From a virus (taxonomy: Duplodnaviria > Heunggongvirae > Uroviricota > Caudoviricetes), in IMG/VR virus record IMGVR_UViG_2648501839_000008: DNA of 64,000 bases; one strand, given 5' to 3'. The notes below the pieces were generated by a model. The model did no database searches and was not told the origin of the DNA. It saw only the letters and a program-made list of their open reading frames with translations. The translations under genes and the position numbers were made by a program. Numbering within the stretch: the first letter of the stretch is position 1; each line of letters opens with the position of its first letter. Below, one piece after another: positions 1,003-37,403 of this stretch.

Positions 1003-1034
1003 AAACAAATTGTTTTCTAGTATTAGTTAATTAG
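1003..1034 (-). promoter_or_regulatory. Class-A palindromic site (AAACAAnTTGTTTTCT) upstream of the helicase gene
   Basis: aaacaaattgttttct followed by gttaattag, about 20 nt upstream of the ATG at 982. Confidence 0.5.
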
Positions 1035-1776
1035 ATAGGGGATCAATAAACCGCCGTGCTTCTTCCAGTTCTTCTGGAAAGTGGGCGGAAATAAGGCGCT
1101 CTGGAACGATTTCCATTAGCCAGATAGCGGAGAAAATTGCGCGTATGCGCTTGCTGCGGGGGATGGCGCGTAAACGCTCCAGAATCCACTCAAAATAGCT
1201 TTCCTGAATCGGGTTGAACTGCATGTCTCCCATATGCTTAAAGCTAACCAGAGAGTCATCCAGACGGGTTGTTGCGCGTCTGGCTAATTTCTCTTCAAAT
1301 ATCTCAATCAGTTCTGGCTGCCACAAATGCTGTGGGCGAGGCAGCTTGTCCCACAAACGTCGTGCAGCTGCGGAAAGCACGGTGGAGATAAAGTAGTCGT
1401 ATGAGCAACAATAGCGGTCAGCAAACTGGCGTGCTTTCCATAGCGACGTTTTATTGGCAGTCGACAACTCCTGATAAGGCAGGCGTTTTAACCCGGTGGT
1501 GAACGGAGCTGTTTCAAAGTGTTCGCGACCGTGCGTCAGCATGATATTTGAGTACTGACGTTTGTATGCCTCCGTAAACAGACAGGTGGCCATAAGAGGA
1601 TGCATGTCGCGGTAATCAAACCACTTCGTATCGAAGAGTTCAGCCTCGTCTTTGCAGCGCGACAAACCAATGTTTTCAGCAACCCACTTATCCATAACAG
1701 CGGTATTCCACTCTGTCATGAAGTCGTACTGGTCGTTGTCGATGGTGTCGAAAAAGATTTGGCTCATGTGGCTCAC
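1027..1776 (-). CDS. Hypothetical protein (249 aa), upstream of the helicase
   Basis: ORF track; track start is GTG, probable ATG at 1765-1767; no recognisable motif. Confidence 0.4.
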   Translation of the reverse strand: MSHMSQIFFDTIDNDQYDFMTEWNTAVMDKWVAENIGLSRCKDEAELFDTKWFDYRDMHPLMATCLFTEAYKRQYSNIMLTHGREHFETAPFTTGLKRLPYQELSTANKTSLWKARQFADRYCCSYDYFISTVLSAAARRLWDKLPRPQHLWQPELIEIFEEKLARRATTRLDDSLVSFKHMGDMQFNPIQESYFEWILERLRAIPRSKRIRAIFSAIWLMEIVPERLISAHFPEELEEARRFIDPLSN

Positions 1777-1939: not shown

Positions 1940-1949
1940 TCATGAATAC

Positions 1950-3644
1950 TTAATTATTAAGCAATCTGCTCACACGTAGTTTGTTAAGACTTGATCTAGA
2001 GGCCAGTTTCGTTAATGCACCTATTGCTTTATTCGTGATTTTTTGCTGTTCTTCTGTTAGTTCTTGCATACTTTTGAATCTGAGCAACCCCTTTCTCACT
2101 AAATCCAAAGCATCCTGATTGCGGGATAGTATCCACTTTAAATAATCATCTTCAGAGAAACTGTTAAGATATGCTATGTCACTATGATTAAATTTGCCTT
2201 CAATTATTTTGTATAAAACATTCTCTAAATTAGTCTCTTCAGGCTTCTTATCCATCAATTTTTTTTGAATTAGCAGACCTAACTTTTCGTTACCAAATAT
2301 CTCTACATACAAATTCCGAAAAGCAGTATAAGCATCATCTTGGCTAACAAAGGCATCTGCATATGCCTCTATATAACTATCACAATCAATCTCCAATCTA
2401 TTTAAGATATCAATCAAGCCTATGAAGTGAGCAACAGGTATGTGTGAAAGATTGTCGTTAATTACACATTTTATCTTAGAAATAAACTCAGATTCATTGT
2501 CCTTGAATGAGTCACTAAAAATATCCCAAACATTGTTAACATCACATAAAGCCTTGTGTTCTTTATATTGTTTATTTTTTTCTTCTATTATACCTCGAAT
2601 ATTGCTTTCAGTAGAAAGATAACCATTCTTGAGATAAAAATCTATGTCATCATCGAAAGCAATTTCCGCTCGTTCATAAATAACATCAAGACTATTAATA
2701 AATGAATATACAGAATCATCCTTTTTATCATCTAACATGTAATCAAATACATGTATGTTTTTAATTGATTCTTTAAACAAGGCATAATCAACACCTGGAA
2801 CACCAGAATAGTAAACCACTGAAAACAGAACCAATCTATTGATAAAACTTTCTCTAACCTTATCCTCTGCCAAGCTTAGCTCATTCCTAAGATTAACCAG
2901 AGATGTTTTTATTTTATTTAATATACGGATATTTTTAATGCCTAAGTCATTTGCTAAGACTTTTAACAAAAGAAAATCAGAATCAGTTTCATAAAAAACT
3001 TTACGTAAGTTCTTCTCAGGCGTAGGATCGTATTTTATTTCGACATCAATTACTTTTTCTCTGTACTCTAAAAACTGTTTTTTTGCAGTTTCATCATGTA
3101 AATTATCTTCATTTAAAATTAGAACAACTTTGCAACCTTTTCTTCTTGCTAATTCATCAATTACCCCCATAATTTCTTTAACTTCTAGCGAATTACCTTT
3201 TCTTTCAACATCATCAATACAAACCAAATAATTATTAACAAATTTATACTCAAGAGATGACAGCAGGTTATCTGTTTTGAACCCAAAAAAATCGTTCTTT
3301 CCGAAATGTATTAAAAATTTTGACAAGGAGTTGTATTTCAACCATCCCCAAAACCCATTTCTATAACGAATCATAGTTCGATCCGTTTCAGATAAAATTA
3401 GTTCTTTATATTTCTTTTCATTAATTGGTGTGGCACAATGATAAAGAGCTTTTTTAATATCACCAATAGAGTTAACCCCAAACAAAGAAACATACGAATA
3501 TGCATTAAAATCTAATCCTTCAGAATGCTTAGTATAAAAACTATTCCAATAATGAGTTTTACCAACGCCCCAATCTCCTTTTATGACGGCAACCCGATGA
3601 TCTGAAACTAGAAAATTTTTTAGAAATGATTCTATCGATTCCAT
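1950..3644 (-). CDS. KAP-family P-loop NTPase (candidate defence or abortive-infection protein), AT-rich cargo gene
   Basis: N-terminal Walker A VIKGDWGVGKTH, Walker B-like LVCIDDVERKG about 140 aa later, long helical C-terminal region; AT-rich codon usage unlike neighbours; probable ATG at 3644 with AAAGGA RBS (track start 3653 is TTG). Confidence 0.55.
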   Translation of the reverse strand: MESIESFLKNFLVSDHRVAVIKGDWGVGKTHYWNSFYTKHSEGLDFNAYSYVSLFGVNSIGDIKKALYHCATPINEKKYKELILSETDRTMIRYRNGFWGWLKYNSLSKFLIHFGKNDFFGFKTDNLLSSLEYKFVNNYLVCIDDVERKGNSLEVKEIMGVIDELARRKGCKVVLILNEDNLHDETAKKQFLEYREKVIDVEIKYDPTPEKNLRKVFYETDSDFLLLKVLANDLGIKNIRILNKIKTSLVNLRNELSLAEDKVRESFINRLVLFSVVYYSGVPGVDYALFKESIKNIHVFDYMLDDKKDDSVYSFINSLDVIYERAEIAFDDDIDFYLKNGYLSTESNIRGIIEEKNKQYKEHKALCDVNNVWDIFSDSFKDNESEFISKIKCVINDNLSHIPVAHFIGLIDILNRLEIDCDSYIEAYADAFVSQDDAYTAFRNLYVEIFGNEKLGLLIQKKLMDKKPEETNLENVLYKIIEGKFNHSDIAYLNSFSEDDYLKWILSRNQDALDLVRKGLLRFKSMQELTEEQQKITNKAIGALTKLASRSSLNKLRVSRLLNN

Positions 3645-3695
3645 TAGTATCAATCCTTTAATTCATATATTGGGCGTAACAAACGCCCAATATAA

Positions 3696-4055
3696 TCAAC
3701 CTTTCTTCATCAACTCTCGTTTAATTTCATCGGTACGCATCGTAACGTCGGCAGCTGTGATCGCCTCGTTAAGCTTCACGATGTCCTCGATTTCCTGCGG
3801 TGACTTCTCTGCCAGATGGAAAATGGCTGCTCGAATCACGTCAGAACGAGTGAACTTCTCGAAGCGAGGGATGAACTTCATCATCTCCAGCAGTTCGAAG
3901 TATTCGTCTTCCAGTGACATTGTGCGGCTTTTAATTTTCTCTTTGCCACGAGTCGGGCGTCCCTGTGGTCTGACTGGTTGGCGCAAAGGAGTTGTGTTCT
4001 TAGCCGGTGCATCAGGCTCTTTGCGCTTTGCTAGGTCACCCATTTTCATGGACAT
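3696..4055 (-). CDS. ParG-like ribbon-helix-helix partition protein
   Basis: 119 aa, basic disordered N-terminus plus C-terminal RHH-like segment; start overlaps parA stop (TAATG coupling). Confidence 0.45.
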   Translation of the reverse strand: MSMKMGDLAKRKEPDAPAKNTTPLRQPVRPQGRPTRGKEKIKSRTMSLEDEYFELLEMMKFIPRFEKFTRSDVIRAAIFHLAEKSPQEIEDIVKLNEAITAADVTMRTDEIKRELMKKG

Positions 4056-4723
4056 TATTCTTCTTCCTCCAGACTCAACAGATAATCTACAAATTCTTCA
4101 AACTCGGCTTCAGCCTTTTTGTCGCGCTCGCTACCGGTCATTTCGAAGATAGAACGACCAGACTCTTCCGCATCATCGTAGACGTTGCGGTTATATAGAT
4201 TGACTGGCGCAGACTCGATGCCAAACGTCTCGACAATCTCTTTAGCCGCCAGAATGCGAGACACTTGTGATGGCAAAGCCGGGCACTGGTTCATGACCGC
4301 GCGGACCTTCACTTTATCGTTTACATTACGAACATTGTCGATAATAGGATCGATGTCACGCAGAGATTTCAAATCACGACGCTTAGGACGAAGCGGGATA
4401 ATGATAACGTCGGCCATCAGCATCGCTTGTCGCTGAATTTCGGAGTCAAAGCCACCAGCATCTACCACTACAAACTCAGCTCTACCCTGAAGCGATTTTA
4501 GGTGCTTAATGATGTCATCCTGGACGTATGCAAAAGGAATCAGCTCAAGGTCTTCGTTCTGTCGACGGTCTTCACACCAGCTCGTTGTCGTGCGCTGAAT
4601 ATCTATATCGGTAATATAAACCTTCTTCTTCTTTTTGACTTTCAGGCAAACGGCAATTTGCTGGGCAACGGTGGATTTGCCAGGCCCGCCCTTTGTGCCG
4701 CCAACCACAAAGATCTTGGTCAT
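4055..4723 (-). CDS. parA: ParA/MinD-family partition ATPase
   Basis: Deviant Walker A GGTKGGPGKST at the N-terminus; 222 aa, small type-Ib ParA size; RBS AAGGGA. Confidence 0.7.
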   Translation of the reverse strand: MTKIFVVGGTKGGPGKSTVAQQIAVCLKVKKKKKVYITDIDIQRTTTSWCEDRRQNEDLELIPFAYVQDDIIKHLKSLQGRAEFVVVDAGGFDSEIQRQAMLMADVIIIPLRPKRRDLKSLRDIDPIIDNVRNVNDKVKVRAVMNQCPALPSQVSRILAAKEIVETFGIESAPVNLYNRNVYDDAEESGRSIFEMTGSERDKKAEAEFEEFVDYLLSLEEEE

Positions 4724-4899: not shown

Positions 4900-5652
4900 T
4901 TAATCTTTTAGATATAAACCAACTGGGGTTCTTGTTTTGCGGGAGATGATAAGTACGATAAATTTCTCAACGTTAACTTGCACCTTATTTGGAAACCAAG
5001 AGCTTAATTCTGGATCAAGTAACAATCCTCTGTTCCACGGCAAAAAGCCGGTTTCTTTTCCCATCCCATATTCGCCTAACACATCCTCGAACGTCTCAGT
5101 TTTTGCGTTGTAAATTCTTACATCACCTGTTCGCATTAATGGACCGGCCCAGATTTTTGCGCCAGGAATGGTCTGATTGTAATCACAGACAAGATGTTCG
5201 TACCAATGAAGGAGGAAGCGATACGTGAGGTTGCACAGTCCCCTTTGCCTTATTGCTCTTTCTGTCTCAACACCTGCAATCTGATAGCAGTCAATCTCTA
5301 CCCCATCCTCGATGAATGTGTATTCACGCAATGCAATTCTGCCTGCTATCGTGTTTCTGCTCTGATCGAGCATGTCGGAACGCAGAATTGCTTGAATAAT
5401 GTCCGAATCAGACATTCCATCTTCGCCTCTGTCCAGAATGAAGTCCATCAGTTCACCCTGATCTCGTGCTCCAACTTTCTCCATCAGGATATACAGACAG
5501 ATATCATCATCAGGCTCGATAATGGTTATTTCGGATATTTTGAAAAGCGATGCTTCGTTGATGAGGTAGCCAAAACGTGAAACGCGAGTTTCCCCACGGT
5601 GAGGAAACTCATAAAGATTTTTAGAGTATGTGCGTTCTAGTGTAGGTGCCAT
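4900..5652 (-). CDS. Hypothetical protein (250 aa)
   Basis: ORF track; ATG at 5650-5652; overlaps the upstream gene by 16 nt (coupled pair). Confidence 0.4.
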   Translation of the reverse strand: MAPTLERTYSKNLYEFPHRGETRVSRFGYLINEASLFKISEITIIEPDDDICLYILMEKVGARDQGELMDFILDRGEDGMSDSDIIQAILRSDMLDQSRNTIAGRIALREYTFIEDGVEIDCYQIAGVETERAIRQRGLCNLTYRFLLHWYEHLVCDYNQTIPGAKIWAGPLMRTGDVRIYNAKTETFEDVLGEYGMGKETGFLPWNRGLLLDPELSSWFPNKVQVNVEKFIVLIISRKTRTPVGLYLKD

Positions 5653-6020
5653 CTTAGAGCAGTACCATCAGCAGTTGTATTGCTGACAATGCTACCATGA
5701 GTATTAAGAAAGCGGCGAATTGCACTCTCAATAATTTCAGAGAATTGGTCACTAAACCGTGCTAATTCAGGGTATTGTTTTGCTGGCTTCACAATGAAAC
5801 GAACACGATCGTTCAGGAAAATCGCTTCAGCCAACGGTTTTACACTGGCACCAGCATTCTCAACATCGTCTTTGAAAGTTACGATGAAGCGAGTGTCTTT
5901 TGGCGCAGTCGCATCGTTGTTAAGTTTACGCACCTCAAGTTTGCGCTTATTCAGCACATGAGTTGCGATAACACTCGTGCAATCGCGAATTGTTTGTATA
6001 GAACGTTTTTCGTTCAGCAT
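5637..6020 (-). CDS. Hypothetical protein (127 aa)
   Basis: ORF track; ATG at 6018-6020. Confidence 0.4.
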   Translation of the reverse strand: MLNEKRSIQTIRDCTSVIATHVLNKRKLEVRKLNNDATAPKDTRFIVTFKDDVENAGASVKPLAEAIFLNDRVRFIVKPAKQYPELARFSDQFSEIIESAIRRFLNTHGSIVSNTTADGTALRWHLH

Positions 6021-35475: not shown

Positions 35476-35505
35476 TCTGGGCATGTCTTATTAAGCCTGC
35501 TTCCG

Positions 35506-35560
35506 TATATATTTAATAAGTTACTTATTATTTATATATACAGAAGCAGGTCTTTAAATA
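35506..35560. repeat. 55-bp AT-rich palindrome, copy 2
   Basis: cctgcttccgtatatatttaataagttacttattatttatatatacagaagcagg, directly 3' of the wHTH gene. Confidence 0.7.
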
Positions 35561-35850: not shown

Positions 35851-36741
35851 TTATGCCGGTAAAGCAATTTCTAACGGTTTATCCAAAGGTTGTTTGTCGA
35901 ATGCCAGCAGTGGCAGCGTGTCAGGCAGTCGACGACCAAAGTCAGGGTTTCGATACACCCCATACAACGGAGACGTAAAGCTCAGGTTGTGAATGTCCTT
36001 GAGCAACTTCACAATGCTGGCCTCGTCCACCAGACTGTCGGCAATGTCCTGAATCGTCGTGCCACGATTCCGCCCAGCTTTTGCCAGGGAACTGTTCTTG
36101 TGGTAGTCCGCCACCAGATCACGCAGTGCACGGCGACGACGAGACTCGCTCATTGCGAACAACTCTTTGACGATCGCCTCGTTATCACCCGGGTCGGAAC
36201 GGAAATGGCGCTGGAATACACGCAGTGCACTTTCATAGCTCTTCGGTCGCTCAGGGCGGATGAACTTAAACCCTGCTTTCATGGCGAAGGGATTGTATTT
36301 ACTCATCGAGGACTGGATCTCAATGATTGGCCGGTCATGCATCCTGCTAACCAGGTTAATCATTCGATAAGAGACGCCTACGCCACGATACTGAGTATCC
36401 ACAACTGAGCGACTGATCACCGCAAAGTTGTTATTCACGTACCGACCCCAGTACTGGTTAGCCACGGTGGTATTAGTGGTTGGTTTCAACTTAGGAAACA
36501 TGCGGTGGCGAGGTGCCAACAGTAGTTTCGGGTAAGCCATAACCACGACGCCCACCAGACGGTCATCAAGTTCGCAGCGATAGTAAGTTGGCGCGAAAGG
36601 TTTGCCGTCTGTTTTGTAGTGAAGCGACTTAAGAGCGTGCCAGTCCTCTACAGTTCCCTTTGTAACAGTCATTCGCTCCAGAAAGTCCAGATGACGCGGA
36701 AACTCTTCAGGGCGGTAGCGTTTAATGATGATGTCCGTCAT
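35851..36741 (-). CDS. GNAT-like acetyltransferase-fold protein with C-terminal extension
   Basis: ...AVISRSVVDTQYRGVGVSYRMINL... resembles GNAT motif A (acetyl-CoA binding); 296 aa. Confidence 0.45.
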   Translation of the reverse strand: MTDIIIKRYRPEEFPRHLDFLERMTVTKGTVEDWHALKSLHYKTDGKPFAPTYYRCELDDRLVGVVVMAYPKLLLAPRHRMFPKLKPTTNTTVANQYWGRYVNNNFAVISRSVVDTQYRGVGVSYRMINLVSRMHDRPIIEIQSSMSKYNPFAMKAGFKFIRPERPKSYESALRVFQRHFRSDPGDNEAIVKELFAMSESRRRRALRDLVADYHKNSSLAKAGRNRGTTIQDIADSLVDEASIVKLLKDIHNLSFTSPLYGVYRNPDFGRRLPDTLPLLAFDKQPLDKPLEIALPA

Positions 36742-37403
36742 GAATGGACCTCATCGTGACTACCATTGTGATATTCCACCTTCACGCGTTCTTTGTAGTG
36801 CTTGGTGATCTGCATATCCGGGCGCAGCGCGTTCTTCAGGTCTTCGTGAGTCGTCGCCACCATTACCGTCGCACCAACCTTTCGAGCGGCACGCTGGAGG
36901 TTAGACGCCACAACCTGAGCGGTTACACGGTCGAGAACAGCGCCGAACTCGTCAGCAGCCCACACTTTAGCGCCTGACTCAATCAGTTTGGCAATCTTGA
37001 GACGATATTTCTGGCCGTCTGACATTTCAGAAGGCTTGCGAACAAACAGATATGCATCGTTCAGACCAGCCATAGATAACAACCCAAGCGCATCACTGGT
37101 CGTTTTGCCCAACTGATCGATGACGTTAACCTCATTATCGAAGGTAAAATCATCGATGGAGGCTACAGACAGCCCTTCATCCTTCATCTGTCGTTGCAAC
37201 TCGCGCAGCACAACGGATTTGCCGGAACCGGATTGGCCGGTGATGTACACCACATCGCCCTGCTTCACTTCCAGCTCCAGATTGTCGTAAAGCGTCCACT
37301 CTTTTTCGTCCAGGCCAAGCCCGAACGACTCAGCGATTTCCAACGTGCGCGTGGTTTTATTTACGCGTGTCTGAAACGATACGTTGATGATGTATTTGCT
37401 CAT
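36738..37403 (-). CDS. ABC-type ATPase (stand-alone nucleotide-binding domain)
   Basis: Walker A GQSGSGKS, signature-like SDGQKYR, Walker B VWAADEF, H-loop TTHE; 221 aa. Confidence 0.65.
   Translation of the reverse strand: MSKYIINVSFQTRVNKTTRTLEIAESFGLGLDEKEWTLYDNLELEVKQGDVVYITGQSGSGKSVVLRELQRQMKDEGLSVASIDDFTFDNEVNVIDQLGKTTSDALGLLSMAGLNDAYLFVRKPSEMSDGQKYRLKIAKLIESGAKVWAADEFGAVLDRVTAQVVASNLQRAARKVGATVMVATTHEDLKNALRPDMQITKHYKERVKVEYHNGSHDEVHS

Follow-up and report, generated by a model that had tools for sequence, protein, structure and literature searches.

The viral DNA recorded as IMGVR_UViG_2648501839_000008, analyzed here as a single stretch of 64,000 nucleotides ("the window"), is an SSU5-like phage-plasmid of Escherichia coli/Shigella, and a gene next to its partition genes (positions 1950-3644, minus strand) encodes a KAP-type P-loop NTPase of 564 amino acids. 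Comparison of its sequence, predicted structure and genomic contexts makes it likely, in our judgment, that this KAP gene is a stand-alone, horizontally exchanged defense against superinfecting phages, of an ATP-driven sensor type and expressed in the lysogen. As such it joins the single-gene KAP NTPase defenses already known and is not a new kind of system. A first-pass annotation of the same DNA had proposed a phage-carried defense gene, and that candidacy is strengthened because the slot in which the gene sits is occupied in a relative by the restriction enzyme PD-T4-3, and because homologues are found in the gpA-gpQ hotspot of P2-like prophages and in integrative and conjugative elements (ICEs); a match to the candidate defense family PDC-S49 adds to it.

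A variable slot beside the partition genes

The nearest match of the window is "Escherichia phage CMS-2020a" (CP054387.1, 99.1%), and identical KAP genes are carried on plasmids of about 110 kb, for example in E. coli O104:H4 2009EL-2050; a natural lysogen with the gene is an E. coli carrying p09EL50 (NC_018651.1). Immediately upstream of the KAP gene and on the same strand lies the partition cassette that the first-pass annotation had placed there. It comprises a ParA-type partition ATPase (4055-4723, minus strand; Pfam MipZ, AAA_31 and CbiA; PHROG 164, "ParA-like partition protein"; NCBIfam ParA_partition at 115.7 bits, under its cut-off of 180) and a 119-residue partner (3696-4055, minus strand; PHROG 5111), a putative centromere-binding protein, this role being suggested solely by its position after parA. 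The homologue of the partner in the related element Cyrano (CYRAN_29, L001:4762-5121) is annotated "RelE/ParE putative toxin"; none of the family searches made with the 119-residue protein supports a toxin. On the other side of the KAP gene, a conserved backbone gene of unknown function (1027-1776, minus strand; PHROG 2500) precedes a dnaB-like helicase gene, in an order that is identical in all relatives compared.

Alignment by BLAST with Cyrano, PhiR41_1 and SSU5 places the KAP gene in a sharply bounded slot. Homology ends at 1939-1947 and resumes at 3695-3698, and because it breaks at both edges the variable segment is exactly the KAP gene and its 51-nucleotide leader, which fill the slot from 1944 to 3694. 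The proximal edge is the stop codon of the par partner and the distal edge a conserved 58-bp palindrome. The par backbone is present in 737 plasmids of the PLSDB collection and the KAP allele of the window in only 23 of them; the KAP family as a whole occurs in 137 PLSDB plasmids, including 75 from Klebsiella and 21 from Escherichia. Among 5426 complete E. coli genomes the gene was found in 28, always on plasmids of about 110 kb, and overall it is missing from approximately 90% of the E. coli and 75% of the Klebsiella elements that share the par backbone. This scattered presence, and the refilling of the slot by other genes in relatives, show directly that the gene is cargo, as had been supposed.

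The other occupants of the slot are informative in their own right. In PhiR41_1 it holds a GIY-YIG protein matching the PADLOC model of PD-T4-3 (CMoRE; E 1.6e-23), a validated modification-dependent restriction endonuclease (PMC12923530). In Cyrano, SSU5 and Enterobacter elements it holds a DUF2971 protein matching PDC-S31 (E 3e-41; L001:3962-4765 in Cyrano, and L003:3088-3846 and L014:3695-4453), and in further relatives genes without a match. A locus that varies between conserved flanks and has a proven defense gene, PD-T4-3, among its alternative occupants has the composition of a defense hotspot. In Cyrano the DUF2971 gene and the par partner overlap, start on stop codon, which suggests co-translation of cargo with the par operon. 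DUF2971/PDC-S31 proteins are also immediate neighbors of KAP genes in two other species (2 of 141 neighbor proteins in the census described below), so that both families apparently move through a common set of hotspots.

Variation among the KAP genes themselves is likewise concentrated within the slot. In SSU5-like elements of Klebsiella and Salmonella, the same slot carries a KAP allele whose protein is only 40-44% identical to that of the window, whereas identity between these elements is 82-91% for ParA and the PHROG 2500 protein. Within complete E. coli genomes there are two alleles, at 98-99.8% and 82.7% DNA identity, represented by the window and by pGMI17-003_2 (NZ_CP031136.1), and these differ at synonymous sites by a dS of 0.56, with a ratio of nonsynonymous to synonymous divergence (dN/dS) of 0.22; the flanking genes show a dS of 0.09-0.13 and almost no amino acid change. 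Because the dS of the KAP gene far exceeds that of its flanks, the alleles appear to have been swapped as cassettes rather than to have diverged in place. Divergence between them rises stepwise after residue 356. Residues 1-356 retain 82-97% amino acid identity (dS 0.40, dN/dS 0.15), and residues 357-564 retain 50-65% (dS 0.98, dN/dS 0.26). These ratios indicate that the gene is functional and under purifying selection. A variant one residue from the window protein was found in more than 1100 blocks of an assembly collection, including assemblies of Shigella sonnei and E. coli, and lay in the par-adjacent slot in every place that was read.

The KAP protein and its homologues

Positions 1950-3653 of the minus strand form one open frame, in which the ATG at 3644 (3642-3644; stop codon 1950-1952) gives a 564-residue product with the N terminus MESIESF. 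This start was assigned because an AGGA lies 9 nucleotides upstream of the ATG and because the homologues begin at the same residue; a TTG at 3653 was rejected, lying only 1 nucleotide after the AGGA and finding no support among the homologues. The earlier reading of the product as a P-loop NTPase of KAP layout is borne out by the open frame, by the Walker motifs and by a match to Pfam KAP_NTPase (PF07693) that is real but weak (24.8 bits against a gathering cut-off of 20, E 1.6e-5, residues 12-254). PF07693 is also the precomputed Pfam assignment of nearly all the homologues. Failure to match this model, or consistent assignment of the homologues to a core phage function, had been named in the first-pass annotation as grounds for abandoning the proposal. 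None of the homologues is so assigned, and PHROG 4740, which matches the protein over its full length (E 1.4e-165), is annotated "unknown function". Other searches added little. NCBIfam has no family for the protein, its match to Pfam nSTAND3 falls below threshold (16.3 versus 27.2 bits), a sequence profile search of the PDB returned nothing relevant (the sole match, to a citramalate synthase at E 0.015, is spurious), and a Foldseek comparison of the model with viral structures gave nothing at E≤0.001.

The AT-rich composition remarked on earlier is pronounced: the GC content of the gene is 0.307 (0.248 at third codon positions, GC3), against 0.45-0.49 (GC3 0.42-0.57) in its flanks. Homologous genes, compared in loci L004, L005, L007, L008 and L010, have a GC content of only 0.27-0.35 in all of their hosts, including a case inside an ICE of 58% GC. 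Low GC in all hosts is thus a trait of the gene family, not the mark of a single recent transfer.

On sequence grounds the protein is a soluble P-loop NTPase with an intact set of catalytic residues. A Walker A motif of the form GxxGxGK[ST] is found as GDWGVGKT at residues 23-30 (3555-3578, minus strand), with G23, W25, G26, G28, K29 and T30 invariant in 41 homologues. A Walker B motif of the form hhhhDD followed by an acidic residue and an arginine is found within YLVCIDDVER at residues 139-148 (3201-3230, minus strand), with Y139, C142, D144, D145, E147 and R148 invariant in the same set. Both motifs had been recognized in the first-pass annotation, which put the second some 140 residues downstream of the first; it begins at about residue 140 of the protein, approximately 115 residues after Walker A, and the stretch LVCIDDVERK occupies residues 140-149. 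Also invariant or nearly so in the 41 homologues are N178, the run Y194-R195-E196-K197, N238, R240, K244, W504 and R557.

In the AlphaFold2 model (pLDDT 84) the protein has the fold of an Orc/Cdc6/STAND-like ATPase followed by an alpha-solenoid, and its closest structural matches are the initiators Cdc6/Orc1 and TnsC. Residues 1-256 (2877-3644, minus strand) make up the ATPase core and a helical lid of AAA+/STAND-like type. Between the Walker motifs is an aromatic-rich insert (residues 75-135; 3240-3422, minus strand) that is partly disordered in the model, with pLDDT below 50 for residues 95-126. In the KAP family as first described, the stretch separating the two Walker motifs contains two or four membrane helices, a typical feature and not a universal one. 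No membrane helix was detected in the window protein, whose highest 19-residue Kyte-Doolittle mean is 1.35 and lies outside the insert; the F-plasmid protein PifA likewise lacks the membrane insert by the same measure (maximum 1.27). Residues 257-564 (1953-2876, minus strand) form a conserved all-alpha, solenoid-like region, in keeping with the superhelical alpha region that follows the NTPase in the KAP family, and the hypervariable tail defined by the two E. coli alleles (residues 357-564; 1953-2576, minus strand) is proposed as the part that confers specificity or acts as sensor. Within the C-terminal region there is no Pfam family or enzymatic fold; Pfam searches of 22 C-terminal regions of homologues gave scattered chance matches only, and no nuclease-, protease-, TIR- or SIR2-like motif or pore domain was recognized anywhere in the protein.

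The family to which the protein belongs is large. A word-indexed search returned 1586 homologues, and an exhaustive search of representatives of 50%-identity clusters returned 3036 proteins at E≤0.001 and 552 clusters at E≤1e-30, the representatives being nearly all full length at 560-600 residues. In a scan of one genome per species, 341 stretches were found in Proteobacteria, Cyanobacteria, Verrucomicrobia, Acidobacteria, Bacteroidota and other groups, and the distribution is patchy. A neighborhood census of 80 loci from 80 species, with 141 immediate neighbor proteins, gave no conserved partner, as no neighbor family occurs at more than 5 of the 80 loci. This lack of a recurring neighbor marks the gene as a single-gene module, and a two-gene system was rejected on the same grounds. 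At four of the 80 loci the gene is found in a P2-like prophage, between gpA (replication) and gpQ (portal), an interval that is the old/tin defense hotspot (PMC9122126). One of these four, the Rahnella homologue (42% identical), had been considered as a further phage-plasmid copy, which its place in a P2-like prophage rules out. Two others are cargo of PFGI-1/ICEclc-type ICEs, at different positions in the transfer (type IV secretion) clusters of Salmonella salamae and E. coli O169:H41 (L004:8001-9779 and L096:7894-9669). One homologue adjoins an IS66 element and a T5orf172 gene, and one is solitary between housekeeping genes. The 141 neighbors include AriA/Old/GajA-like ATPases, PDC-S31, a type I methyltransferase, DpdF, PsyrT, SIR2_2 and Uma2, together with numerous ordinary genes.

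Among defense families, PDC-S49 is the sole one matched by the window protein in PADLOC (E 2.7e-22), a check that the first-pass annotation had suggested. The match covers the ATPase part only (residues 3-223, model positions 8-214 of 624). Five homologues behave in the same way, at E values down to 2.2e-27, and one of them, P0043, aligns over positions 6-479 of a weaker model, PDLC05030. Members of PDC-S49 are of similar length (about 620 residues), but their C-terminal half is unlike that of the window protein; no paper on the family was found in the literature.

Membership in the better known KAP-class systems "PifA", "QatA" and "Tmn" was rejected, as their defining features are lacking. 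PifA of the F plasmid, a founding member that gives the family its "P", excludes phage T7 by abortive infection, the trigger being T7 gp1.2 or gp10. It is likewise a plasmid-borne NTPase without predicted membrane helices, made of an ATPase and a long helical C terminus, and resembles the window protein in both Walker motifs, GxWGxGKT (A) and DDxxR (B). The alignment is confined to the Walker regions, however (hhalign probability 31% over 72 columns, with the Walker B stretch of the window protein placed on the Walker B region of PifA; BLASTP E 0.08), and the PADLOC PifA model scores 963 bits on PifA (L015:12446-14671) and does not match the window protein. PifA is also longer, at 741 residues, and follows the repressor gene pifC, whereas the window gene has no pifC-like partner and is preceded by parA and its partner gene. 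In PADLOC, PifA groups with QatA and PDC-S20 and matches the QatA hidden Markov model; the window protein does not, and its locus has no linked partner genes of the kind found in QatABCD. Tmn, the transmembrane NTPase of Gao et al., is a single-gene KAP-class defense with two membrane helices inserted in its P-loop domain and a helical C-terminal surface proposed as an interaction platform. The insert of the window protein, by contrast, is soluble and partly disordered, and the protein has no PADLOC match besides PDC-S49.

Alike in organization are two published single-gene defenses. "EF_KAP" protects against phage in a non-abortive manner that requires Walker B and the C-terminal region (PMC13552941), and "Reve", from defense hotspots of P4 satellites, protects strongly (PMC13586616). 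Each combines a KAP NTPase with a large region without known domains, and the window gene, a stand-alone KAP NTPase with a large uncharacterized region, has the same organization, the likeness to Reve being one of description only. EF_KAP comes from serine-recombinase-linked loci and has two predicted membrane helices, of which the window protein has none. Enterococcus plasmid KAP genes, which are not equated here with EF_KAP, are 25% identical to the window protein in the ATPase only. Compared with the STAND/NLR-like defense ATPases (Avs, and RdrA of RADAR) and with Orc1/Cdc6 and TnsC, the window protein lacks a separate effector domain and a winged helix. The DefensePredictor paper does not mention KAP.

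Palindromes, leader and other features of the window

The distal edge of the slot is marked by an imperfect, AT-rich palindrome of 58 bp (1884-1941), which begins 9 bp past the KAP stop codon. The first-pass annotation had described it as one of a twin pair of 55 bp following the gene; the pair exists, its length is 58 bp, and the slot copy belongs to the conserved backbone of the element and not to the cargo. The alternative, that it forms part of the cargo, was rejected because it is kept in relatives whose slot holds other genes, being conserved in E. coli, Salmonella, Enterobacter and, partially, Klebsiella. The twin (35495-35552) is intergenic, about 120 bp upstream of genes for a DNA-binding protein (PHROG 867) and the large terminase. 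Both copies fold far better than shuffled sequence (-25.7 kcal/mol, z -6.8, for the slot copy and -35.4 kcal/mol, z -7.5, for the other), both carry GC clamps and lie between co-directional operons, and neither has a clear U-tract. They were found by a fold scan combined with BLAST; a gapless repeat finder did not detect them. As a pair they may be terminators, insulators or protein-binding sites, and the copy at the slot is likely a terminator or insulator. Just upstream of the second copy, two adjoining genes (35851-37403, minus strand) match PHROG ABC-transporter ATP-binding subunits of the class "moron/auxiliary".

Within the 51-nucleotide leader, a GC-rich hairpin (3667-3693, minus strand; RNA fold -18.9 kcal/mol, z -4.5) starts 3 nucleotides after the stop codon of the par partner and is a possible attenuator of read-through from the par genes. 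Hairpins of different sequence occupy the same leader position in the Klebsiella and Salmonella elements. Scans for sigma-70 promoters and terminators gave no more sites than shuffled sequence, and because of the former result no promoter is claimed here.

A palindromic box, AACAANTTGTT, is present in 10 copies in the window where 0.15 would be expected by chance (at 1004, 4760, 35420, 44561, 45097, 46000, 49698, 49749, 62465 and 63194). One copy precedes the parA start by 37 nucleotides, another stands immediately before the dnaB-like gene, and a third lies between the second palindrome and the terminase genes; the box probably serves the phage-plasmid as an operator or promoter element. A second variable slot lies beyond parA (4900-6020, minus strand) and holds, in the window, two genes of unknown function (PHROG 3307 and 2594). 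In Cyrano and in Shigella/E. coli elements this slot carries a TacA/TacT (KacT-type) toxin-antitoxin pair and in an Enterobacter element a HEPN protein (L001:6072-6906, L098:805-1603 and L013:3538-3648).

A proposed role in defense and its alternatives

How a protein of this type would act can be sketched as a sequence of steps, each of them conjectural. In the plasmid-prophage state, transcription starting at the parA promoter would read through the leader hairpin, which may throttle it, and so yield a low level of KAP transcript that would probably end at the 1884-1941 palindrome. The C-terminal solenoid or tail would recognize a protein of an incoming phage, and binding would switch the Orc/Cdc6/STAND-like ATPase by nucleotide exchange or hydrolysis, probably with oligomerization. 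The activated protein would then block phage development, either by its own ATPase or with the help of a host factor that it recruits, these options being considered because nuclease, protease, TIR, SIR2 and pore domains are absent. Published KAP relatives exhibit both possible outcomes, the abortive infection of the PifA type and the non-abortive interference of the EF_KAP type.

Several observations weigh against a role in defense. No effector domain that would account for a killing or blocking step is recognizable in the protein. The match to PDC-S49 extends over only the ATPase third of the model, and that family is itself a computational candidate. Many homologues lie among ordinary metabolic genes, and the neighbor census, having no background control, is to be read qualitatively only. 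The lack of a sigma-70 signal above shuffled sequence is a further difficulty, as is the possibility that the leader hairpin blocks read-through. Moreover, a published DefenseFinder survey of 1377 SSU5-group elements, which reported PD-T4-3, PD-T7-5, PrrC and restriction-modification systems and none in the large S. sonnei clade, did not report the KAP gene.

Other roles for the gene must be considered against the same evidence. That it acts instead in competition between mobile elements, excluding phage-plasmids, plasmids or conjugative DNA, or as an addiction module stabilizing its carrier, we regard as unlikely. In its favor, every well resolved context is a mobile element (an ICE, a P2-like prophage or a phage-plasmid), partition genes adjoin the KAP gene and toxin-antitoxin modules are close by in relatives, and it has been pointed out in the literature that PifA may have a primary role other than phage exclusion. 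Against it, solitary chromosomal copies exist outside recognizable mobile elements, no antitoxin-like partner was found at the 80 loci, and proven anti-phage genes occupy both the slot and the P2 hotspot. Position, together with the resemblance of the fold to Cdc6/Orc1 and TnsC, could also suggest an accessory of partition or replication, an Orc/Cdc6/TnsC-like ATPase aiding segregation or initiation, since the gene is co-directional with parAB on one side and the PHROG 2500-dnaB-primase genes on the other, and follows the par partner at a distance of only 51 nucleotides. This explanation fails because the gene is patchy in its presence (absent, as noted above, from most elements with the same par backbone), because unrelated genes, including a restriction enzyme, replace it in the slot, and because P2 prophages, ICEs and chromosomes that lack par genes also carry homologues. 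As the gene also diverges 5-10 times faster than its flanks and has a GC content foreign to the backbone, such a role is very unlikely.

Two further alternatives are more remote still. Variable slots of mobile elements carry anti-defense genes too, and the SSU5 group has the Rad anti-retron system, so that the KAP gene might serve counter-defense or host takeover, aiding establishment of the phage-plasmid or its lytic cycle. The known anti-defense proteins, most of them small, include no KAP NTPase to our knowledge; the experimentally characterized bacterial KAP NTPases in the literature covered (PifA, Tmn, Reve and EF_KAP) are all defensive, and solitary chromosomal copies are hard to reconcile with such a function, which we consider highly improbable. 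Finally, the extreme AT-richness of the gene invites silencing by H-NS in an enterobacterial host and no clear promoter is present, as might be expected of a silent or decaying hitch-hiker without current function. An open frame that is intact in hundreds of isolates, dN/dS values of 0.13-0.26, catalytic residues invariant across phyla, and 552 clusters at 50% identity that retain the full-length architecture together make this the least credible of the explanations considered.

Returning to anti-phage defense as the favored role, a broader generalization may be entertained, if only as a tentative one with the odds against it: the family of the window protein may consist of "effector-less" immune ATPases in which the hypervariable C-terminal solenoid binds a phage protein and the ATPase executes the response, the par-adjacent slot being a dedicated site of cassette exchange. 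The executioner might, for example, use ATP to capture or dismantle a phage replication or packaging complex, with the cell spared, and the slot of SSU5-like phage-plasmids may correspond to the gpA-gpQ hotspot of P2, both being supplied from one gene pool.

If the KAP gene is confirmed as a defense, a large and widespread family of soluble KAP NTPases that the published DefenseFinder survey did not report would join the single-gene defenses, and a defense hotspot would be defined beside the partition genes of SSU5-like phage-plasmids. As clinical E. coli, Klebsiella, Salmonella and Shigella sonnei commonly carry such elements, the slot and the spread of a near-identical allele through S. sonnei and E. 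coli would then bear on phage therapy and on the success of lineages. The two E. coli alleles, which differ mainly in their last approximately 210 residues, offer a natural pair for understanding how a KAP NTPase chooses its target, and the family, having no effector domain, is a good case for learning how such ATPases stop phage.

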